From a virus: DNA of 64,000 nucleotides. Positions 3,556 to 39,941 of the stretch are shown here, piece by piece. The notes under the pieces were generated by a model. It did not search any database. It saw nothing but the letters and a program-made list of their open reading frames with translations, and had not been told where the DNA came from. The position numbers and the translations under genes are program-made. The stretch is taken from IMG/VR virus record IMGVR_UViG_3300036761_003779, positions 1 through 64,000 of that record, one strand, 5' to 3'. Each line of letters starts with the position of its first letter. Position 1 is the stretch's first letter.

Positions 3556-3898
3556 CGTCTTCTCCTCCAATCAGCTTCAGCGCGGCCTCCCCCTCGTTCC
3601 GGAGGACCGCGTGGACCACATGAACGACCAGGCGCCAGAAGGCCCCGGCCTGTTTGTCCCGCGGCAGCTCGAGGTCCGCCTCCGCCTCGAGGAGCGCCTC
3701 GTGCTGCTCCGCGGAGAGGAGCGGCCCGGCCAGCCGGATCCGGTCCGCGGAGACCGGGGAGCGGAGGTCCCGCGTCACCTGGACGCGGAGGTCCCGCGCC
3801 ACCTCCTCCGGGATCTCCGGCCGCTCCCCGGCGGCCCGGTAGACCTCCAGGAGCCATGCCAGGGTCGACTTCCGCACAACCGCGTAGCCGTCGCTCAC
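3539..3898 (-). CDS. Hypothetical protein
   Basis: GTG start overlapping the upstream stop; VSDGYAVVRKSTLAWLL... Confidence 0.65.
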   Translation of the reverse strand: MSDGYAVVRKSTLAWLLEVYRAAGERPEIPEEVARDLRVQVTRDLRSPVSADRIRLAGPLLSAEQHEALLEAEADLELPRDKQAGAFWRLVVHVVHAVLRNEGEAALKLIGGEDDAGQG

Positions 3899-4536
3899 GG
3901 GAGCACCTCCACGTCCTGCCCGAGCCGGTGCGGCGCCCGCCCGTCCGTCAGGTCCGCCAGGATCGAGGCCGCGCGCTCGACCGGGAACGTCCCGACGCCC
4001 GCCGGGACCTCCGTCACCCGCCGCTCCCCGGTCAGCTCCGGGAACCAGGCGCAGTAGACCCCCAGCGCCGGCGGTCGGTGCCAGTAGGCGAGGAGGTCCC
4101 GGAGCCCCCGCACCAGCGCGGCCTCCGGGTGGACGCGGAGCATGCCGATCCGCTCCGGCGTGACCGTCGCCTGGAGGAGCGGCCCCGCCAGGGAGAACCG
4201 CTTCAGCGGCGCCCGGAGGTTCAGCAGCTCGAGGAGGAGCCGGACCCCGCCGACGACGTAGCCCTGGAAGGCGGTCCCCCAGCACGCGCGCTCCCGCTCC
4301 AGCGGGTGGCGCAGCGCCAGGTACGCGACCGCCTCCACGTCCCGGAGGTTCCCCTCCGGGAAGGAGGTCCAGGAGTAGGTGGCGCCCGGGTTCCGCCAGC
4401 GCGCCTCCTCCCCGTCCTCCTCCAGCTCCGCCGTCGAGAGGTCGTCGTGGACCAGGACCGCGTGGTCCCGGGAGAGCAGCTCGTCGACGACGTGTGAGCC
4501 TAGGAAACCAGCACCACCGGTCACAAGTACCTTCAT
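3895..4536 (-). CDS. NAD-dependent epimerase/dehydratase-like (SDR) protein, short and degenerate
   Basis: N-terminal MKVLVTGGAGFLGSHVVDELL...DDLST; only 213 aa and no clear YxxxK. Confidence 0.75.
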   Translation of the reverse strand: MKVLVTGGAGFLGSHVVDELLSRDHAVLVHDDLSTAELEEDGEEARWRNPGATYSWTSFPEGNLRDVEAVAYLALRHPLERERACWGTAFQGYVVGGVRLLLELLNLRAPLKRFSLAGPLLQATVTPERIGMLRVHPEAALVRGLRDLLAYWHRPPALGVYCAWFPELTGERRVTEVPAGVGTFPVERAASILADLTDGRAPHRLGQDVEVLP

Positions 4537-5221: not shown

Positions 5222-5684
5222 TTTGAGCCTCCGTTTGTTGAATCTTCCTGAGGTGAGTCCAATGACGTTCCCCGCGCGGCCTCCGCTCCGGGTGCAGCCT
5301 GGAACCACATCGATCTCCCCGCGCAACCCGCTCTGGGTGAGTCCTCGAACCATGCCGCTCCCCACGCGCCGTCCGTCCCTTCTCCTCCCGATCCGCTACA
5401 TTCTCCGCGTGGGTCCCCGGAATCAGGTGCGCCGGGTTGCAGCAGGGCGGGTTGTCACACGTGTGGCGGACCGCCTCCGCATCCGTCGGACCAAAGGTCA
5501 GCTCGTAGGCCACGCGGTGAGCCGTCTCCTGCTTTCGGTTCCTGTAGAACCGCCCATAACCCTTCTTGATCCGGAAGGCCATCCAGGGCCAGCATGCGTC
5601 AGGTCCTCCGGATACATCCACCTTGGACCAGAAGCGTCGGGCGTCCCGCTCTCTGCGTTTGTCTTCCTTCACGTCATGCGCCAT
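5214..5684 (-). CDS. HNH homing endonuclease (free-standing)
   Basis: RFWSKVD..CWPW..GYG..HRVAY..VRHTCDNPPCCNPAHL..N. Confidence 0.9.
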   Translation of the reverse strand: MAHDVKEDKRRERDARRFWSKVDVSGGPDACWPWMAFRIKKGYGRFYRNRKQETAHRVAYELTFGPTDAEAVRHTCDNPPCCNPAHLIPGTHAENVADREEKGRTARGERHGSRTHPERVARGDRCGSRLHPERRPRGERHWTHLRKIQQTEAQSG

Positions 5685-7233: not shown

Positions 7234-7554
7234 TCACTTCCGCGTCCGTCGCCCGAAGCGCCAGAACTTCCGCGCCTCCTCGGTCCCAATGACCCTCCAC
7301 AGGTCCCGCCGGTGAACGACCGCCCGCTCCGCCCCCGCCTCGATGGCGCCGTCCCCGGTCACGTTCCGCGGGTCCACGTCCCGCCCGTCCAGCCTGCTGA
7401 TGACCCAGTACTCACCGAAGAGCGTGAGGAGGGAGCACCCCCTCAGGACCGCGTAGTCGCGCGGGTCCGCCCCCAGGAGCCCCTCCTCCGCCATGGCCAT
7501 GCCGACGATCTCCGCCCTGGACCCCGGCCGCAGCTTCACGTCCTTCAGCTTCAT
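7234..7554 (-). CDS. Hypothetical protein
   Basis: MKLKDVKLRPG...; coupled to the upstream stop. Confidence 0.65.
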   Translation of the reverse strand: MKLKDVKLRPGSRAEIVGMAMAEEGLLGADPRDYAVLRGCSLLTLFGEYWVISRLDGRDVDPRNVTGDGAIEAGAERAVVHRRDLWRVIGTEEARKFWRFGRRTRK

Positions 7555-8531
7555 CTTCTATCCGTGATGAGCGTGGGGGTGGACCCCACCCGCGGGAGGA
7601 AGGCCAGGCGGACGCGGGAGAGCCCCCGCGGCCGACCCAGCCGCTTCCAGAGGGCCCAGGAGAGGTCCGTCACCGCCCGGAAGCGCCAGCCCTGGGGCGG
7701 CCGCGTCCGCGTCCAGATCCGCCAGCGCCCGTCCGGGACCGCGTTCTTGAGTCGCCCGGTGTAGATCCCCCACGGCCCGGCGTCCATGACGCGCGCCACC
7801 ACGCAGCGCCCCGTGGCCTCCGCGCACACCTGGACGCGCCGGCCGCAGCCGAGGCGCCGCCAGTGCCGGTGCGCAATGTGGACCTGCGCCTCCGTGTAGC
7901 GCCCGCCGCACGCCAGCTCCCCCCGGTTCCAGCCGTCCCCCGGCTTATAGACACTTAACCTCCCAACTTGAACTACTAGACCTATATCCTCCGGTAGTGG
8001 TAGACTAAGATCATGAACTACGTAACTATTACGTCTTTTCTTGAGCGAGTATCCACCGGAGAAGGGTGTTGGCTCTGGAATGGCCGAATTATGGCCGGAG
8101 GATACGGAACACTCGGGGGCGGAAAGCGCGGCGTGAGCGTCTACGCTCACCGCATGTCCTACATGCTCTTCATCGGAGAGATTCCCCCGGGTGTCTGTGT
8201 CCTCCATCGATGCGACAACCCACGGTGTGTGAAGCCAACGCACCTTTTCCTCGGGACGCAGGCGGACAACAACCGGGACATGAAGGAGAAAGGCCGCGCC
8301 CGCGGCCCGTACCTCAGAGGAGAATATCACCCAGCGGCCAAACTTCGGGACGAACAAGTCATCGAAATTAGGGCCGCGCACTCCTCCGGGGAGTCCACCC
8401 GACGGTTGGCAGAACTCTACGGTGTACGTAGAAGGCTGATCACCGAGGTTGTAGCCGGACGTACCTATATTCACGCAGCCTCCGAGCGTTAGGAGGAGGA
8501 GCGCCAGGAGGAGGGAGATCAGGGTAGCCAC
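7551..8531 (-). CDS. RlpA-like (double-psi beta-barrel) lipoprotein, putative lytic transglycosylase, with a ~160-aa insert
   Basis: Signal peptide and lipobox LLLLTLGGC; C-terminal SVY..GELACG..AHR..LGCG..VQV..TGRCVVARVMDAGPW..TDLSWA; the middle is the antisense of an HNH gene. Confidence 0.75.
   Translation of the reverse strand: MATLISLLLALLLLTLGGCVNIGTSGYNLGDQPSTYTVEFCQPSGGLPGGVRGPNFDDLFVPKFGRWVIFSSEVRAAGAAFLLHVPVVVRLRPEEKVRWLHTPWVVASMEDTDTRGNLSDEEHVGHAVSVDAHAALSAPECSVSSGHNSAIPEPTPFSGGYSLKKRRNSYVVHDLSLPLPEDIGLVVQVGRLSVYKPGDGWNRGELACGGRYTEAQVHIAHRHWRRLGCGRRVQVCAEATGRCVVARVMDAGPWGIYTGRLKNAVPDGRWRIWTRTRPPQGWRFRAVTDLSWALWKRLGRPRGLSRVRLAFLPRVGSTPTLITDRR
7977..8006 (+). promoter_or_regulatory. 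Putative leaderless sigma70-type promoter for the nested HNH gene
   Basis: TAGACC-18 bp-TAGACT with an extended -10 TG; the -10 sits 6 nt before the ATG at 8013; AT-rich patch. Confidence 0.4.
8013..8492 (+). CDS. HNH homing endonuclease nested antisense in the RlpA-like gene
   Basis: CWLWNG..GYG..YAHRMSY..VLHRCDNPRCVKPTHLFLGT..DN, then GEYHPAAKL and a C-terminal HTH; visibly lower GC than flanks. Confidence 0.92.
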   Translation: MNYVTITSFLERVSTGEGCWLWNGRIMAGGYGTLGGGKRGVSVYAHRMSYMLFIGEIPPGVCVLHRCDNPRCVKPTHLFLGTQADNNRDMKEKGRARGPYLRGEYHPAAKLRDEQVIEIRAAHSSGESTRRLAELYGVRRRLITEVVAGRTYIHAASER

Positions 8532-8725
8532 TTGTCGACCCCGGCGCGGATGTTCTGGAGCGCCGTGGCCATCTTCTCCGTGACCGCCTGGTGCTCCTCG
8601 ATCCAGTCCTTCATCCCCGTGACCTTCTCCAGGACGGACTCCTTGAAGTCCTCCGCCCGCTCCGGCAGGTCGTCCAGGTCGGTCAGGATCTCCTCGGCCA
8701 GGTCCAACGCCTCGTCCGGTTCCAT
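8519..8725 (-). CDS. Hypothetical protein
   Basis: 68-aa acidic helical ORF with GGAGGAG RBS. Confidence 0.75.
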   Translation of the reverse strand: MEPDEALDLAEEILTDLDDLPERAEDFKESVLEKVTGMKDWIEEHQAVTEKMATALQNIRAGVDKWLP

Positions 8726-8726
8726 G

Positions 8727-9089
8727 TCACTCCTCCAGCAGCTTCTTGACGCGAGGCTTCATCTTAACATGCCCCGGCCGCGTTGGTCCTCTGTTAATGC
8801 GCCTTACCTCCCGCGGAGGGAGGAGCGCCCAGCCGCGGAGGTCCAGCTCGTCGACCAGGACCTCCGCCGCGCGGTGGACCGCGTCGCGCCCGGCCACCGG
8901 GTTGTCCCGCTCCACCTCGCTGAAGACCTCCTCGACGTCCTTCCAGGGGATGGCGCGCCGCGCGTCGAACACCACCCTGATCCCCTCCTTGATCCGCCGC
9001 ACGCGCCGCTCCAAGGTCTCGAGCGCCTCCAGCGCCGCCTCCAGGACGTCCTCCCGATCCGCGGCATGCAGGTCGAGCCATCTGGTCAT
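8727..9089 (-). CDS. Hypothetical protein
   Basis: MTRWLDLHAAD...; coupled to the resolvase stop. Confidence 0.7.
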   Translation of the reverse strand: MTRWLDLHAADREDVLEAALEALETLERRVRRIKEGIRVVFDARRAIPWKDVEEVFSEVERDNPVAGRDAVHRAAEVLVDELDLRGWALLPPREVRRINRGPTRPGHVKMKPRVKKLLEE

Positions 9090-9787: not shown

Positions 9788-10625
9788 GCTCCCTCCTGTC
9801 CCGGAGTAGCCGCGATGCGGCCGCCCGGACCTGCGCCGGGTCCCGGTCCACGTACACGCACCGGCGCCCCGCCCGGTCCGCCGCCACGAGCGTGGTCCCG
9901 GTCCCCCCGAAGACGTCGAGGACCAGGCCGCCCTCCGGGCAGCCGGCCCGGACCAGCGCCTCAACGAGGTCCAGGGGCTTCTGCGCGCGGTTCAGGTCCA
10001 CGCCGTCCCCCCGCTTCAGCCGCTCCGACTGGTTGACGACCCCGCGCTCGACCCAGTTCGGGCAAACCGCCGGGACCCACTCCCCGCCCGGGTGGGCCAC
10101 GAAGTAGTTGCGCTGCCGCGGCATCGCGTCGAGGTCGAAGAAGGCGCCCGGCGCCTGCCCCACGGCTAGGAACTCGCAGGCGGAGACGAAGGTCCGCTTC
10201 CGGACGGAGCAGGCCGGATTCGGCTTGCACCAGACGAAGGAGGCCCGGACGTCGAAGGCCGCCTCCCGGAGCCACCGCTTGATCAGGGAGAGCCACCAGT
10301 CCGAGGTCCAGATCCAGGCGTTCCCCGCCGGGAGGTCCCGCGCCGCCCCGACCAGGGAGCGGAGGAGCGCCTCCAGCTCCGGCTCCGGGAGCCGGTCCCA
10401 GGACTCGTTCAGGGCATGGTCCTTGTGCCCGGTCATGTTCCCGATGACCGCGTCGGACGAGACCGCGTAGGGCAGATCCGTGAGGAGGAGCGCCGGCGGC
10501 CCCTCCACGCGGGCGAGGACCTCCCGGAGGAAGTCCGCGTCCGCCGCGTCCCCGCAGGCCACCACGTGCCCCCGCGCGTCCTCCCAGATAAAGCCGGGGA
10601 CGATCTCGACCGCGAGCCGCTTCAC
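9780..10625 (-). CDS. N6-adenine/N4-cytosine DNA methyltransferase (beta class)
   Basis: Catalytic TDLPY precedes QKP..L...VLDVFGGTGTT (SAM-binding). Confidence 0.88.
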   Translation of the reverse strand: MKRLAVEIVPGFIWEDARGHVVACGDAADADFLREVLARVEGPPALLLTDLPYAVSSDAVIGNMTGHKDHALNESWDRLPEPELEALLRSLVGAARDLPAGNAWIWTSDWWLSLIKRWLREAAFDVRASFVWCKPNPACSVRKRTFVSACEFLAVGQAPGAFFDLDAMPRQRNYFVAHPGGEWVPAVCPNWVERGVVNQSERLKRGDGVDLNRAQKPLDLVEALVRAGCPEGGLVLDVFGGTGTTLVAADRAGRRCVYVDRDPAQVRAAASRLLRDRRERG

Positions 10626-11080
10626 CCTCCGACCTCAGGCCATGGACCCGTCCACTGATTCCTCCCAAACCGTTCCGGACACGTCTTCGAGCCATGCCGC
10701 TCCCCCCGCGCCGTTCGTTCCGGTCTGGTCCGCCTTCCGTGACTCTCCCCACGCGCCCGCCTATCCGGTGAAACGGAGTCCCTACCCCGCGCGGTCCGCC
10801 CCTTCGCGTCCCGGTCCGCGACGTTGTCCGCGTTGGTCCCGAGGAAGAGGTGGTCCGGGTTCACGCAGGATGGGTTGTCGCAGCGGTGGAGGATGCATAG
10901 ATCCTCCGGGATCGCCCCGTTGAGTAAAGAGAAGGCCACGCGGTGCGCGCAGTGCCGCCTCCCGGCAACTGTGAAGAGCCCGTAGCCGGAGCGCGTCTTT
11001 ACCCCAAGCCACTCCCAGCACCCGTCCGCCTTCCTCACCTTTGACCAAAATCTCTTCTCTATTGGGACATTCCTACTCAT
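10622..11080 (-). CDS. HNH homing endonuclease (free-standing)
   Basis: RFWSKV..CWEW..GYG..HRVAF..LHRCDNPSCVNPDHL. Confidence 0.9.
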   Translation of the reverse strand: MSRNVPIEKRFWSKVRKADGCWEWLGVKTRSGYGLFTVAGRRHCAHRVAFSLLNGAIPEDLCILHRCDNPSCVNPDHLFLGTNADNVADRDAKGRTARGRDSVSPDRRARGESHGRRTRPERTARGERHGSKTCPERFGRNQWTGPWPEVGG

Positions 11081-13280
11081 TCCAAGCTCCGCTTCTATCC
11101 TCCGCCTCCCAGCGGTGGACCACGACCACGTTCCGGAACTCCCTCCGGACGTCTGCATGAGTTATTAATGATACTTGCCGGATCCCCAGGTCCTCCAGCC
11201 CGCCGAGGAGGAGGGCGTGGAGCGCGGCCCGGTTCGGCTCGTCCAGCGCGCCGTCCGGCTCGTCGACTAGGAGGGACTCGCAGCGGACCCGCCGCCGACT
11301 CCCGGGGAGCGCCGCCAGCCCAAGGCGGACGCCCAGGCTCAGGAGGACCTTCCCGCCGCCGGAGTCCAGCTCCCAGGCGGACTCGTGCTCGCCGTCCAGG
11401 ACCTCGAGCCGCAGCTCGTCCCGCCGCTTCCGCCGCCGCGGCGCCCCGCACAGCCGGCAGAGGTGGGTCCGCTCCGCCTTCTCGAACGGCGTCCCGCAGC
11501 CCACGCAGGCCGGCTCCCAGTCCTTCAGCTCCCGGGTCGGCGCGAACCGGACCCGGAGCGGCGTCCGGAGGACCTCGAGGACCCGGTTCATGTTGGCCTC
11601 CGCCGACCCAAAGGCGTTCTCCAGCTCCCGGCTCGGGATCCCCGCCGCGCCGAAGGCGTAGGCGGCCCAGGCGGTGAGCTCAAGCTCGCGCCGCGCCGCG
11701 CCCCGCCGCCCCTCCAGGTCCGCCCGCTCCGCCGCCGCGCGCTCCAGCCCGGCCGCCTCCGCCCGCGCGTCCGCCGCGACCCGCTCCGCCTCCCGGAGCG
11801 CCTCCCGCGCCTCCCGGAGGGCGTCCGCCGCCCCCGCCAGCGTCCGGGACTCCGGGACCGCCGGGAGGGTCTCGAGCCGCTTCCGCGCCGCGTGGAGCGC
11901 CCGGCCCACCTCCGTCCGCCCCAGCCGACCCCGCTCCACCTCCCCCGCGGCCGCCTCCGCCGCCCGCTTCCGGGCGGTCAGGTCCGCCATCGCCTGCGCC
12001 GGCGTCGCCGCGCCCCGGAGCGCCCGCAGCTCCCGGACCTCCTCCTCCGCGGAGGCCACGTCCGAGCGCGCCATGCCCAGGCGCCAGTCCACCTCGTCGA
12101 TCTCCGTCTCCAGCGCCATCATCCGGCGCCGGTGCCCGAGCCCGTCCACCTTCATCCCGGCCAGGACCGCCTCGTCCCGCGCCACCCGGTCACAGGGCTC
12201 CCGGAGGACGGGGCAGACCCCGGTTCGGCTCTCCACCAGGGCGTTGTACTTTTCCAGTAAGGCTAGACGAGCATGCCCCTCCTCCCGCAGCGCGTCCTCC
12301 GCCCGGTGGAGCGCGGCAAGCGCCTCCTCCGCCGTCCCCCGCATCTCCCCGAGCGCGGCCTCCCGCTCCTCGAGCCGCCGCGCCCGCTCCGCCCGGTCCG
12401 CCGCCGCGCGGTAGGCGGTCTCCGCCTCCGGGACCGCCGCCTCCGCCGCCGCCGCCGCGTCCTCCGCGTCCCGTCGCTCCTGCGCCAGGGCGTTCTCCAG
12501 CCGCCGGACCTCCGCCCCCGCGGCGTCCCGCTCCCGCCGCTTCCCCTCCCGCGCCTCGTCCGCGGCCCTGGCCACCACATGGCGCTGGAGCGCCTCCTCC
12601 GCTTCCAGGCGCGCCGCGTCAAGGGCCAGGTCCGCTCCCCTTGCCCGCTCCCGCATCTCCTCCCCCCGGGCCAGCAGGGCGCCCAGGCGCACCTCCTCCG
12701 CGTCCAGCGCCCGGAGCGTCGCCTGGGCCCGGAGCATCCGCCGCCGCGCCAGGTCGGCCCGGGGCACCCAGCGGTCCGTCCCGAACCAGGGCGCCACCAC
12801 GCGCCGCTTCTCCCCGGCGGTCAGGCGCATGAAGGCGTGGACGTCCCCCTGCGCCGCCGCCATCGTCAGGGCGTACTCCTCCCGGGAGAGCCCCACGACC
12901 TCGTCCCGGACCGCCGCCTCGAGGTCCGCGTCCGAGACGTGGGCGCCGTCGATGGTCCGGATCGGGTCCCCGCCCGCCGTCCGCCCGCGCCGGAGGACCC
13001 AGGAGCGCCCGTCCGAGGACTCGACCTGCGCCTCCGCCCAGGCGTCCTCCTTCCCCCGCGCCAGCCGGTGGGGGAGGTCCTCGACGCGCCCGCCGCGGGT
13101 GGCTCCGAAGAAGACGTACATGGGCACGTCCACCGCCAGCCACGATTTTCCAGCCCGGTTGGAACGGTCGCCCGCGCCCTCGTACTCCCCGACGAAGACC
13201 GTGACGCCCGGGCCCAGCCGGACCTCCCACTCCGCGAGGAATGGTCCCAGGTTGTTGACGGTCAGCCGCGTGAGGATCAC
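11073..13280 (-). CDS. SbcC/Rad50-like SMC ATPase
   Basis: SNRAGKS Walker A, QG Q-loop, long coiled coil, SGGGK signature, LLVDEPDGALD Walker B, ITH. Confidence 0.9.
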   Translation of the reverse strand: MILTRLTVNNLGPFLAEWEVRLGPGVTVFVGEYEGAGDRSNRAGKSWLAVDVPMYVFFGATRGGRVEDLPHRLARGKEDAWAEAQVESSDGRSWVLRRGRTAGGDPIRTIDGAHVSDADLEAAVRDEVVGLSREEYALTMAAAQGDVHAFMRLTAGEKRRVVAPWFGTDRWVPRADLARRRMLRAQATLRALDAEEVRLGALLARGEEMRERARGADLALDAARLEAEEALQRHVVARAADEAREGKRRERDAAGAEVRRLENALAQERRDAEDAAAAAEAAVPEAETAYRAAADRAERARRLEEREAALGEMRGTAEEALAALHRAEDALREEGHARLALLEKYNALVESRTGVCPVLREPCDRVARDEAVLAGMKVDGLGHRRRMMALETEIDEVDWRLGMARSDVASAEEEVRELRALRGAATPAQAMADLTARKRAAEAAAGEVERGRLGRTEVGRALHAARKRLETLPAVPESRTLAGAADALREAREALREAERVAADARAEAAGLERAAAERADLEGRRGAARRELELTAWAAYAFGAAGIPSRELENAFGSAEANMNRVLEVLRTPLRVRFAPTRELKDWEPACVGCGTPFEKAERTHLCRLCGAPRRRKRRDELRLEVLDGEHESAWELDSGGGKVLLSLGVRLGLAALPGSRRRVRCESLLVDEPDGALDEPNRAALHALLLGGLEDLGIRQVSLITHADVRREFRNVVVVHRWEAEDRSGAWNE

Positions 13281-13810
13281 TCCGCGCCCTCCTCCGGGAC
13301 GTGAGCCCAGATCTTCCGCCGCGCAATCAGGCTGACGAGACTGCGGGAGACCCCCAGCGCCTGCGCAATCGCGGTCTTTGACTCTCCCTCGGCAACGCAG
13401 CTCCGGATAACCTGCACGCGGGGAACGTCTATCTTCGCCGCCCCGTTCACGGGTCCACGCGCCAGCCGTTCCGGACGTTGGCGGGTCCAGTGCGCGTCCC
13501 CGCCCACGGAGACGTGCCGCCCACGGTCAAGACAGTCTGCGTTATTCTCCGCCACGGTCCCGGCGAGGAGATGAGCTGGATTGCAGCAGGGAGGGTTGTC
13601 ACAGGAGTGCCTCACCGTTGGCGCCGGGATCTCCCCATACGTTAATTCGTAGGCAACCCGGTGGGCACGCCTCCTCCAAATGAGTCCGTAGCCCTTCTTG
13701 CTCCGGGATCCGGTCCAGGGCCAGCAGGCGTCCGGACCGCCGCTCCGGTCCACCTTCGCCCAGAACCGTGTAGCCCACCTTTCCCTATTCATCCGTTGAC
13801 CTTTTAGCAT
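13277..13810 (-). CDS. HNH homing endonuclease with C-terminal HTH
   Basis: RFWAKVD..CWPW..HRVAY..VRHSCDNPPCCNPAHL; HTH KTAIAQALGVSRSLVS. Confidence 0.9.
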   Translation of the reverse strand: MLKGQRMNRERWATRFWAKVDRSGGPDACWPWTGSRSKKGYGLIWRRRAHRVAYELTYGEIPAPTVRHSCDNPPCCNPAHLLAGTVAENNADCLDRGRHVSVGGDAHWTRQRPERLARGPVNGAAKIDVPRVQVIRSCVAEGESKTAIAQALGVSRSLVSLIARRKIWAHVPEEGAE

Positions 13811-37166: not shown

Positions 37167-39941
37167 TCAGGACAGTCGGCGGAACGGGAGGGCGCGGATC
37201 CGCGCCTGGAAGAACCGCCCCTTGCTCCCCGCCGCGAGTAGCTCCGGGAGGAGCGGCCCGGCGCCCGGGTAGACGTACTCGGCGCCCTTCCTGAACCGGA
37301 CGAGGAGGTCCTCCCCGTCCCGGCGGACCGCCGCGAGGTTCTCGCTCTCGACCGCGACCCAGCCGCCCGCCGCCGACGCCGGCCCGGGCTCAGCCTCCAG
37401 CCCCCGGAGCAGCTCCGGCGTCAGCTCGACCCGCTCCCCGGCCCGCTCCGAGAACCAGGCCCGGTGCGGCGCCTGGACCGCGTTCCGGATGGCCCGGGCG
37501 TGCGACCGGAGCGGCCGGACGAGGCGGTCCCAGAAGTAGAAGTACACGGCGTCGACCTTCCCCTCGTGCCGACGCTTGAGGCGCCCGACCTGCTGCGTGA
37601 ACCGCCCCGGGTTTGCCGCCGCCGGCGTCATGCCGAAGCCGCGGTCGAGCCGCTTCACGTCCATCCCCTCGTCCGCCACCGTCGTCCCGACCGCCACGCG
37701 GAGGGTCCCGTCCTCGAGCCCCTCCGCCGTCCGGTCCTGCTCCTTCGCGTCCCGCCCGCCCATGAGGCGCCCGGCGTGGACGCCCCGCCGCTTCAGCCAC
37801 GCCTGGATCTCGAGGCACATCTCCCGGCGGTCCGCGAGGAGGAGGCACGTCCGCCCGGCGGCGATCTCCGGGAGGAGGTACTCGAGGACCCGCGCGCGCC
37901 GGCGCTCGTCCCGCGTGGCCGCGTCGAGCATCTCCGCGTAGGTGTTCAGCGGCCCCGCAAAGTGGGTCTCCTTCGCCCAGCGGCGGACCGCCGCCGTCCC
38001 CGTCTCCCGCTCCAGCCGCTCGAAGCCGGCCGCCTCCAGCTCCGCCTCCCGGTTCAGGTCGAAGGCGAAGTCCGTCGGGACCACGACCACGTCCACGGGG
38101 ACGATGCGGTTGAAGCGGTCCAGGTCCTCGTCCCGGATCTCGAAGAGGACCCGCGGCCCGCGCGCCGTCCCGCCGCCCCGCTTCGGGACGTACTCGACCC
38201 CGAAGGCGTCGAAGAACAGCGGCTCCTTCTTGTCCCGCCGGTGCGGCGTGGCGGTGGCCGCCAGCCGGTTCCGAGCCGGGAATAAACTGATACATTCCGA
38301 GAACGTAGACGCGGCGCAATGGTGCGCCTCGTCAAGTATCAGCGTCCCCCAGCGGTTCACCCAGCCCGGGTCCGCCTTGACCTTGTTCAGGACGGAGCGG
38401 ATCATCCCGACGATCAGGTCCCCGTCCCGCTTCTCCCGCCCGTAGAGGACACCGATCCGCCGCTCCGGGACGGAGAACCGCGCCGCCGCCTTCCCCACCC
38501 ACTGCCGGAGGATCCGCTCCGTGTGGCAGAGCACCAGCGTCCGCTCCCCGAGGTCCGAGATGGCCTTGAGCAGGATCTCCGTCTTCCCGGAGTTGTGATG
38601 CCAGAGACCTCCGGCCCAGTAGTTCCCAAAGACCGGGACGTTGAAGTCAAAGTACGGCTCCGCCGGGACCGCCCGCGCGGAGAGGACCCGGACGAACTCC
38701 ACTGGACCCGGGTTATAGGTCCCTGTTAAGATGGACCCACCTAGAGGTGACTCGGATGAGAGAACGCCAGATGTGGGACAAAGCGCGCCGTCAGCGAGCC
38801 GCGGAGCTGTACCGCTCCGGACTCCTCCTAGAGGAGGTGGCGTCCGCCCTTGGGACGAGTCGGAACCGCGTCCGGGAGGCGCTCCGAACGCTTGGGGTGG
38901 AGGTTCGCCCGACTGCGTTCCAGAAGGGCGGGCTGACCGGTCGGAGGAACCCGAATTGGAAGAGCGATCGCCGGGTGGATGAGGATGGATACGTCCTCCT
39001 TCGGGTCCCGGGACACCCGGACGCAAAGCCGGGGGGATGGGTACTCGAGCACCGCCTGGTGATGGAGGGTCTTCTTGGGCGCCGCCTGACCGCGGAGGAA
39101 GTGGTCCATCACCGAAACGGAGATCGAGGAGACAACCGTCCGGAGAACCTCCAGCCGTTCGACTCCAATGGAGCGCATCTTGCGCATGAGCTTCGAGGGA
39201 GGACGCCGAACTGGACGGAAGGAGGACGCCAACGGACCCTGGACGGCCTGGAGCGGTGGCGTGGAGAGCTTCATAGATCTCACGGGCGGAGAGGAAATGG
39301 TGGCCGTCCCAGAAGAGGTGTCCCGGCCTGACGCGGAAGGTCCCCACCTCCGTCTCGATCTCCACGAGCTGCGCCGCCTCGAACATCACCGGCGGGAGCG
39401 CCGCGGAGACCACGGGACCGTTCGGTCCCATTGCCCAGACGTGGAAGGGCGCGCCCTCCGCCCAGCGCTGGAGGGCGGTTACATCGCTCCCGTCCGTTGG
39501 GTCTCGAATAACGGTAGATCCGTGGATACAAGCGCACGGGCCGACGAGGATGCCGGCGCGCCGGGCGACGAGCGCCTTGGCCGCGCTCCGCTGGTCCGGC
39601 CCCAGCTCCCACTCCGGCGGGCTCCGGTAGACGAAGGGGAGCGGCCCGGTCCCGCGGACCGTCCGGTCCACGGGCTCGATCTCCGCGCCGACCCGCGCCA
39701 GGAGCCGCTGGAGGACGACCCAGCCGCCGCGCGGGAGGAGGAGGTCCTCCCCCTCGTCCAGCACCAGGCTGAGCTTCCGCGGGGTCTCCCCCGTCCAGAA
39801 GCCCATGTTCGACTTCTTCCAGAACTCCGGGTTGTCCACCTCGAACGCCTCCCGGACCTCCCGGAGGGAGAGCCCGGCGTCCTTGGCCGCGCGCTTGCTC
39901 AGGCGGAGGTGGGCGTCGACGACGACCTTCAGCTTGACCAT
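37167..39941 (-). CDS. SF2 (ResIII/XPB-like) helicase with an intein and a C-terminal KTSC domain
   Basis: GPCA|intein|SGKT, LILDEAHH, ATATP.R, EGMD, QQVGR; KTSC-like VESENL..L.VRF..G..Y.Y..SKGRFF. Confidence 0.88.
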   Translation of the reverse strand: MVKLKVVVDAHLRLSKRAAKDAGLSLREVREAFEVDNPEFWKKSNMGFWTGETPRKLSLVLDEGEDLLLPRGGWVVLQRLLARVGAEIEPVDRTVRGTGPLPFVYRSPPEWELGPDQRSAAKALVARRAGILVGPCACIHGSTVIRDPTDGSDVTALQRWAEGAPFHVWAMGPNGPVVSAALPPVMFEAAQLVEIETEVGTFRVRPGHLFWDGHHFLSAREIYEALHATAPGRPGSVGVLLPSSSASSLEAHAQDALHWSRTAGGSPDGCLLDLRFGDGPLPPRSGGAQEDPPSPGGARVPIPPALRPGVPGPEGGRIHPHPPGDRSSNSGSSDRSARPSGTQSGEPPPQAFGAPPGRGSDSSQGRTPPPLGGVRSGTAPRLADGALCPTSGVLSSESPLGGSILTGTYNPGPVEFVRVLSARAVPAEPYFDFNVPVFGNYWAGGLWHHNSGKTEILLKAISDLGERTLVLCHTERILRQWVGKAAARFSVPERRIGVLYGREKRDGDLIVGMIRSVLNKVKADPGWVNRWGTLILDEAHHCAASTFSECISLFPARNRLAATATPHRRDKKEPLFFDAFGVEYVPKRGGGTARGPRVLFEIRDEDLDRFNRIVPVDVVVVPTDFAFDLNREAELEAAGFERLERETGTAAVRRWAKETHFAGPLNTYAEMLDAATRDERRRARVLEYLLPEIAAGRTCLLLADRREMCLEIQAWLKRRGVHAGRLMGGRDAKEQDRTAEGLEDGTLRVAVGTTVADEGMDVKRLDRGFGMTPAAANPGRFTQQVGRLKRRHEGKVDAVYFYFWDRLVRPLRSHARAIRNAVQAPHRAWFSERAGERVELTPELLRGLEAEPGPASAAGGWVAVESENLAAVRRDGEDLLVRFRKGAEYVYPGAGPLLPELLAAGSKGRFFQARIRALPFRRLS
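38703..38751 (+). promoter_or_regulatory. Putative promoter and RBS for the antisense HNH
   Basis: TGGACC-18 bp-TAAGAT with extended -10 TG; GAGGTG before the ATG at 38756. Confidence 0.45.
38756..39331 (+). CDS. HTH-HNH homing endonuclease encoded antisense within the intein
   Basis: N-terminal HTH; G..NPNWK..DGY..EHRLVME..LGR.L...EVVHHRNGDRGDNRPENL. Confidence 0.92.
   Translation: MRERQMWDKARRQRAAELYRSGLLLEEVASALGTSRNRVREALRTLGVEVRPTAFQKGGLTGRRNPNWKSDRRVDEDGYVLLRVPGHPDAKPGGWVLEHRLVMEGLLGRRLTAEEVVHHRNGDRGDNRPENLQPFDSNGAHLAHELRGRTPNWTEGGRQRTLDGLERWRGELHRSHGRRGNGGRPRRGVPA

Follow-up and report, generated by a model that had tools for sequence, protein, structure and literature searches.

Positions 1–64,000 of a virus record in IMG/VR that is 105,878 bp long (IMGVR_UViG_3300036761_003779; this stretch is hereafter the window) contain a complete HNH homing-endonuclease gene that lies antisense within a phage gene encoding a short hydrophobic leader and a DPBB domain, and this phage gene, which we call the host gene, stays open across the whole of the foreign DNA. 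On balance, and with restrained confidence, we favor the reading in which the open frame is translated without splicing into a 326-residue protein that still works, because two diverged alleles are both open, the DPBB domain is undecayed and the endonuclease gene appears to avoid the codons that would place stops on the host strand. We infer each of the functional steps that this reading comprises, namely translation of the whole frame, function of its product, expression of the endonuclease, DNA cleavage by it and homing.

The host open reading frame (ORF) runs on the minus strand from a GTG start at 8531 to position 7551 and encodes, in this order, the leader, the host-frame reading of the insert and the DPBB domain (326 amino acids in total). 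The HNH ORF runs on the plus strand from an ATG at 8013 to 8492 and encodes 159 amino acids. With the codons of both ORFs at positions [3k, 3k+2], each HNH codon lies exactly opposite a host codon. A host-strand stop consequently requires TTA, CTA or TCA as a codon of the HNH gene, and in the HNH frame these triplets are absent, as compared to eight occurrences in each of the other two frames of the gene; the two remaining antisense frames of the HNH gene hold nine and eight stops. An earlier annotation made from the letters of the window (the sequence-only reading) had proposed an antisense HNH gene nested in the minus-strand ORF without breaking its frame, and this is what we find, with both ORFs present and in exact codon register. 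The lower GC content that it ascribed to the HNH gene is equally apparent: GC is 0.54–0.62 over 7900–8500 and 0.69–0.77 on both sides, and GC at third codon positions (GC3) is 0.64 in the HNH gene versus 0.95 in host genes, in a phage with a GC content of 70%. The last five HNH codons and the stop codon (8475–8492) are antisense to leader codons L14–C19, so that the overlap reported for the supposed lipobox codons is also there, the six final leader codons being the antisense of the HNH tail AASER plus stop.

The GTG start at 8531 is supported by the agreement of the N-terminus of the composite ORF (MAT-L-I) with those of two homologues discussed below, P0096 (MAAS-L-I) and P0095 (MAAA-L-T). 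This start overlaps the end of an upstream 68-amino-acid gene, an arrangement also seen in a sister phage, L004. Public gene calls shorten the host gene and leave out the leader: P0094 is a 199-amino-acid call from the GTG at 8150 (7551–8150) and P0097, an identical sequence from another assembly, is a 307-amino-acid call from a GTG at 8474. Contigs of a second sediment study hold pieces identical to the window, also inside the insert, and on account of this recurrence we take the insert-bearing sequence to be real.

An exhaustive, profile-free homologue search against 1.84 billion representative proteins gave 93 homologues of the host protein. Nearly all of these are about 130–200 amino acids long and match only query residues ~185–318, with matches beginning at about subject residue 15–30, and their N-termini consist of a short hydrophobic leader followed within 5–17 residues by the motif GRLSVYxPGDGxN. 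The middle part of about 165 residues is missing from about 30 homologues, comprising L004, P0096, L011, L012 and 26 others. The genome of sister phage L004 (105,443 bp) carries a syntenic copy at 3884..4420, encoding 173–178 amino acids and 75% identical in the domain, and shares with the window the gene order methylase, two small genes, 68/70-amino-acid gene, host gene, 106-amino-acid gene, Cys-rich gene and amidase. Homology between the two phages in a blastn alignment ends at 8528 and restarts at 7966, with 561 bp in between in the window and 102 bp in L004. The closest insert-free allele, P0096 (162 amino acids), is 88% identical in the domain and reads MAASLITVLLQLLSMSPSANVEW-GRLSVY. Insert-free alleles, which the sequence-only reading had expected among RlpA-like genes of related phages, are thus found in L004, in P0096 and in other homologues, and they place the junctions to about 10 nucleotides. 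These alignments confirm the middle part as a true insertion and support its placement in the spacer, short and variable, that separates the hydrophobic leader from the conserved GRLSVYxPGDG. Among contigs from four sequencing runs, peat and wetland relatives lose similarity at 8526 and at 7937, and no insert-free contig spanning the site was found.

The foreign DNA, about 0.5 kb, occupies 7967..8474, as judged from the blastn gap, the drop in GC and the length relative to P0096, with borders uncertain by some 10 nucleotides. GC and codon style put these borders near 8474 and near 7944–7966. The latter stretch (7944..7966, minus strand) encodes the first residues of the conserved domain motif (V-GRLSVYK) in AT-rich codons unlike those of the host, AGG TTA AGT GTC TAT AAG, where L004 has CGC CTG AGC GTC TAC CGG at the GRLSVY site; in host genes TTA accounts for 1.2 of every 1000 codons. 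From its codon style this stretch probably either came in with the element as flanking DNA or is a target site that was recoded. At the other border, 8484–8513 is a tandem 15-nucleotide near-repeat, GAGCGTTAGGAGGAG then GAGCGCCAGGAGGAG, identical at 13 of 15 positions and reading LLLAL then LLLTL on the host strand. The copy closer to the insert provides the stop codon of the HNH gene (TAG, the antisense of CTA). The near-repeat may be a junction duplication, or merely Leu-rich low complexity.

A search with the leader-plus-insert part only, among called proteins of 179–571 amino acids, revealed a second insert-bearing allele. This protein, P0095, comes from a 2,271-bp Logan contig, is likewise 326 amino acids long and has leader, insert and DPBB domain. 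Its frame is open, and its insert shares site and register with that of the window. The domains of the two alleles are 86% identical and their host-frame inserts are identical at 67 of 159 residues (42%). The HNH frame of P0095 was deduced at the protein level, from the residues that remain possible on its antisense strand. Of the 159 HNH residues of the window, 121 are encodable on the P0095 antisense, including 97 of the first 110, the part with the catalytic core, as compared to 30.7 ± 4.7 with shuffled columns. Differences between the window and P0095 therefore mostly spare the HNH protein and alter the host-frame peptide, which argues that the HNH frame is the conserved one and that the host frame is merely kept open; on this protein-level comparison the HNH appears to be under purifying selection. 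The insert is present in the window and in P0095 and absent from P0096 and L004, a presence/absence difference at one site among close alleles. Since the domains of the window, P0095 and P0096 are about equidistant (0.86–0.88), presence of the insert is independent of the domain tree, and such a disjunct distribution is, as far as the sequences go, the pattern expected of homing. A protein search with the P0095 insert returned P0095 itself only.

The DPBB domain spans residues 190–326 plus the stop codon (7551..7964, minus strand), as delimited by homologue matches, an AF2 model, Foldseek and conserved columns. In the model the predicted local distance difference test score (pLDDT) exceeds 93 over residues 180–315. 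The best Foldseek match of the domain is PA4485 (4avr_A; E 2.6e-6, TM 0.80), with further matches to a cyanophage baseplate protein, kiwellins, loosenin, expansins and designed DPBBs, so that the model confirms the DPBB fold of the C-terminal part. Pfam DPBB_1 scores below threshold on the host domain (E 0.0027, 18.3 bits against a cut-off of 28.8) and reaches E ≤ 0.01 in only 3 of 30 family members, the whole host protein has no Pfam match at E ≤ 0.01, and a search of the Protein Data Bank (PDB) with the family profile gave no match. The order of motifs in the domain, LSVY...LACGG...HIAHR...GCG.xVxV...TGRCV...MDAGP, appears to resemble that of the RlpA DPBB motifs. Upstream of the domain, host-frame residues 18–177 have pLDDT below 50, and Pfam finds no family at E ≤ 10 in residues 1–192, in keeping with the featureless middle of about 160 residues that the sequence-only reading described.

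The leader itself appears native. Codons 1–19 (MATLISLLLALLLLTLGGC; 8475..8531, minus strand) have host-like GC, and AF2 predicts a helix at residues 2–16. The lipid anchor proposed for it did not hold up. The motif LTLGGC is literally in the leader, and in the window only; the leader is without a K/R n-region, leaders of insert-free homologues have no conserved Cys and for the most part no Cys there at all, and the Cys codon of LTLGGC is the antisense of an Ala codon of the HNH gene. Of the description as an RlpA-like lipoprotein, the DPBB fold thus remains and the lipoprotein and RlpA labels are unsupported, as DPBB_1 is below threshold, no conserved lipobox exists and a Pfam scan of the host protein shows no SPOR domain, the weak DPBB_1 match being the only one. 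Two scans of 185,579 prokaryote species, represented by a single genome apiece, gave no relative of the DPBB family, and the leader-plus-DPBB family (93 representative clusters) was found on viral and metagenomic contigs only. The host gene sits two genes from an Amidase_2/PG_binding_1 endolysin, a neighborhood that fits a role of the DPBB gene at the cell wall.

The inserted gene at 8013..8492 (plus strand) is complete, as had been claimed. Its 159-amino-acid product, with a beta-beta-alpha-metal core and a C-terminal helix-turn-helix, scores 43.5 bits with Pfam HNH_3 (cut-off 24.8, E 2.4e-11) and also matches phrog_1872 (5e-31, profile positions 27–152 of 166). The motif GCWxW...GYG...AHR...VLHRCDNPxCVxPxHLFLGTxxDN and the helix-turn-helix align with relatives, and in an alignment with six of these H65, D68, P70, H77 and G81 of the catalytic motif (LHRCDNP...HLFLGT..DN) are invariant. 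The AF2 model has a mean pLDDT of 78, and its top Foldseek match, I-HmuI (1u3e), is weak (E 5e-3, probability 0.97, TM 0.35–0.38). A PDB sequence search with the HNH protein gave no match, and a scan of viral contigs gave only relatives of 42–54% identity, none adjoining a DPBB gene. Directly 5′ of the gene is an AT-rich region (7967..8012, plus strand; GC about 0.4) that has no Shine-Dalgarno sequence and reads on the host frame as DLSLPLPEDIGLVVQ, free of stops. Within it, TAGACT lies 6 nucleotides upstream of the HNH ATG and is a candidate −10 box for a leaderless mRNA. The sequence-only reading had named a candidate leaderless promoter here, for which a sigma-70 promoter scan of 7400–9000 lends no support, having found no consensus promoter. 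A perfect 10-nucleotide inverted repeat around the HNH start was dropped from consideration as being within chance expectation. Four public protein clusters (P0058, P0089, P0090 and P0091; ORFs of 129–198 amino acids) match only the host-frame insert, at 30–38% identity. These have no DPBB attached and look, from their sequences, like antisense frames of other HNH genes called as proteins.

The strongest rival, which we regard as possible and distinctly less probable than a working composite protein, is that the insertion disabled or crippled a dispensable gene, the open frame being a by-product of the codon register in GC-rich DNA that was then inherited. Evidence from the host domain argues against this. 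The window domain keeps all 15 invariant and 21 near-invariant columns of the family, and of 41 columns conserved to 80% or more among 26 further homologues the window departs from none and P0095 from one, even as both alleles are open despite the 42% identity of their host-frame inserts. Private changes in the domain number 5 in the window, 3 in insert-free P0096 and 10 in L004. Measured against L004, the ratio of nonsynonymous to synonymous substitution rates (dN/dS) is 0.23 for the domain, below the 0.33, 0.34 and 0.50 of three neighboring genes. At the sequence level, then, the DPBB domain shows no sign of decay. The codons of the HNH gene point the same way: A-ending codons make up 0 of 18 in the CTN and TCN boxes as compared to 22 of 72 (31%) in the six other four-fold boxes (Fisher p 0.0034). 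When calibrated for the rarity of CTA and TCA in eight other HNH_3 genes (ratio 0.54), four from the window and four from other viral contigs, the chance of 0/18 becomes about 0.04. The simulated chance of an open frame is 0.10 with the codon usage of relatives and 0.013 with GC3 alone.

Several observations weigh against a functional read-through product. With the amino acids fixed and host codon usage applied, the frame is open in 44% of simulations, and three of the eight comparison HNH genes have no antisense-register stops at all, so that GC-rich HNH genes, by these counts, often have an open antisense frame in codon register. The apparent avoidance of codons antisense to stops is consequently suggestive and not decisive, the codon evidence being mixed. 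The undecayed domain becomes weak evidence should the insertion be very recent or should homing constantly reach fresh alleles, and the insertions in this phage are possibly recent, since the syntenic sister phage of near-equal length has none of the seven HNH_3 matches that score above the Pfam cut-off in the whole record. The host gene may be dispensable, and the codons of its insert frame are rare for this genome. P0095 was found with an ascertainment bias, as broken-frame alleles could be missed among called proteins of 179–571 amino acids; in the representative search, which had no length limit, the insert part matched only distant antisense-of-HNH ORFs (the P0058 and P0089–91 clusters mentioned above). 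The source's own gene caller split the locus, giving the 199-amino-acid P0094. Finally, a terminator-like hairpin is present on the host strand inside the insert at 8308–8291 (minus strand; 7 pairs, of which 6 G–C, with a T-rich tail), and if active it would end transcription of the host gene before the DPBB domain. This hairpin is probably a chance match, because two similar matches occur on the plus strand within the HNH gene itself.

A second alternative, to which we assign little likelihood, is that the DPBB domain is made alone from a start codon inside the insert, either the ATG at residue 109 or the GTG at residue 128 (position 8150), as a leaderless protein that is released at lysis. 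In-frame ATG and GTG codons do exist within the insert, and the database gene callers picked internal starts for P0094 and P0097. Against it, the roughly 60 codons upstream of the domain hold no in-frame ATG, GTG or TTG, a GGGAGG directly ahead of the domain has after it only a GTG that is out of frame, and nearly all aligned full-length homologues have a hydrophobic leader directly before the domain, so that a leader appears to be needed. Least probable of all, to the point that we give it hardly any weight, is loss of the insert through splicing, whether of a group I or II intron that carries an antisense ORF or of an intein, or through translational bypass: antisense endonuclease ORFs have been reported in actinobacteriophage inteins (bioRxiv 10.1101/2025.01.02.630785) and the host-frame insert starts directly after a Cys, but an Rfam scan of 7300–8800 on both strands at E ≤ 10 gave four chance-level matches and no group I or II intron family, the HNH ORF covers all but about 46 nucleotides of the insert, the Pfam scan of residues 1–192 at E ≤ 10 contains no Hint or intein domain, there is no fold (pLDDT below 50 at 18–177) and no HN-[CST] junction before GRLSVY, and frame and phase are preserved in two alleles, which would be needless for an intron. 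The judgement of the sequence-only reading that the insert is neither intron nor intein is thus supported, and of its picture of a non-splicing insertion in a tolerant linker we retain the insertion, the spacer site and the lack of splicing signals, and discard the lipid anchor.

Under the reading that we favor, in which the composite frame is translated and its product works, a free-standing HNH_3 (I-HmuI-like) gene together with its own short AT-rich 5′ region would have been copied into the spacer between leader and DPBB domain, in antisense orientation, with its codons in exact register and a length that is a multiple of three bases. The host gene would then be translated, without splicing, through the reverse complement of the endonuclease gene, to give a 326-residue product in which a floppy linker of about 165 residues, lacking fixed structure, joins the leader helix to an intact DPBB domain. 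Such a protein could keep working because the domain is self-contained and the linker lies between it and a leader that serves for anchoring or export. The endonuclease would be produced from the other strand, starting from the AT-rich region that is devoid of a Shine-Dalgarno sequence, and would presumably cut insert-free alleles near the sequence encoding GRLSVYxPGDG, upon which repair copies the element in. The candidate target is insert-free DNA of the L004 or P0096 type, leader plus GRLSVYRPGDGWN. The part encoding GRLSVYxPGDG is the most conserved coding stretch of the family and lies directly downstream of the element on the host strand, making it a plausible recognition site, and the recoded AT-rich flank would shield the carrier allele from cutting. 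We put at about even the chances of a broader proposal, that some HNH lineages have adapted to a backwards, codon-aligned life in coding genes, with selection purging TTA, CTA and TCA from the endonuclease frame, so that translation of the host protein would pass through the element.

To our knowledge, homing endonucleases are thought to persist within genes only by way of intron or intein removal, and otherwise to reside between genes. If the proposed explanation is true, an endonuclease gene can persist in coding sequence by virtue of a stop-free reverse strand and of a site that tolerates a long floppy insert; this would be a third route to harmlessness besides introns and inteins, and one by which tolerant linkers are favored. 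The closest published precedents are the ShiLan domain and the Pacc40 'hidden HNH' insertions, described from DNA methylase genes of mycobacteriophages (Arsenault, Gosselin and Gogarten 2025, PMC11855218), of which the window case is an antisense variant. The precedents and the window case both have an HNH ORF in an insertion that is missing from close homologues, a stop-free host frame, no intron or intein features and a host-frame peptide whose structure is poorly predicted, and in both the HNH gene lacks a Shine-Dalgarno sequence, with leaderless initiation proposed for the earlier case (PMC11855218). They differ in that the ShiLan HNH lies on the same strand in another frame and inside a catalytic domain, whereas the present one is antisense and in codon register, in the leader-to-domain spacer of a DPBB gene. 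The words antisense, reverse, opposite and complement are absent from PMC11855218. The actinobacteriophage inteins referred to above carry antisense LAGLIDADG or VSR-like endonuclease ORFs, and resemble the window case in having an antisense endonuclease in an in-frame insertion whose host-frame reading is without recognizable structure. Those inteins, however, splice at the protein level, whereas the present insert has no intein blocks and would stay, and the nuclease family here is HNH_3. What is new, then, is the combination of an antisense HNH with a non-splicing insert, each half being known separately.

Likeness also extends to the HNH endonucleases known from other phages, such as I-HmuI of SPO1 and mobE of T4 and Aeh1, with which the present gene shares the HNH_3 family, an I-HmuI-like domain order, foreign base composition, presence/absence polymorphism between close phages and a recoded flank. 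The gene for I-HmuI sits in an intron, and mob and seg genes are located between genes or divide a gene into two parts that are translated separately, as mobE does with nrdA. In contrast, one continuous host ORF runs through the element here. On the side of the host protein, RlpA and PA4485-type proteins share the DPBB fold, with PA4485 as the best structural match, and differ in that the host family is below the DPBB_1 cut-off and has neither SPOR domain nor conserved lipobox. If the proposed explanation is true, the pair of overlapping genes offers a natural system for the study of selection on two strands. For annotation, it would mean that gene callers split or shorten genes of this kind, as they did with the host gene, and it would bear on the recognition of mobile elements in phage genomes, given seven HNH genes in this phage and none in its sister.

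The seven HNH_3 matches are distributed over the record at 5397–5522, 10820–10948, 13541–13672, 102518–102646 and 105223–105354 on the minus strand and at 8139–8276 and 39050–39154 on the plus strand, as located by Pfam. A second antisense HNH ORF, at 38747–39331 (plus strand; 194 amino acids, helix-turn-helix plus HNH), is situated inside a 924-amino-acid helicase ORF at 37167–39941 (minus strand). The helicase ORF stays open across it, and the codons of the two are not in register. Elsewhere, at 10622–11158 (minus strand), a co-oriented free-standing HNH_3 gene of 178 amino acids lies between genes for an SbcC-like ATPase and a DNA methylase, whose ends it overlaps; its core has 71% DNA identity to the antisense HNH at 8141–8270.

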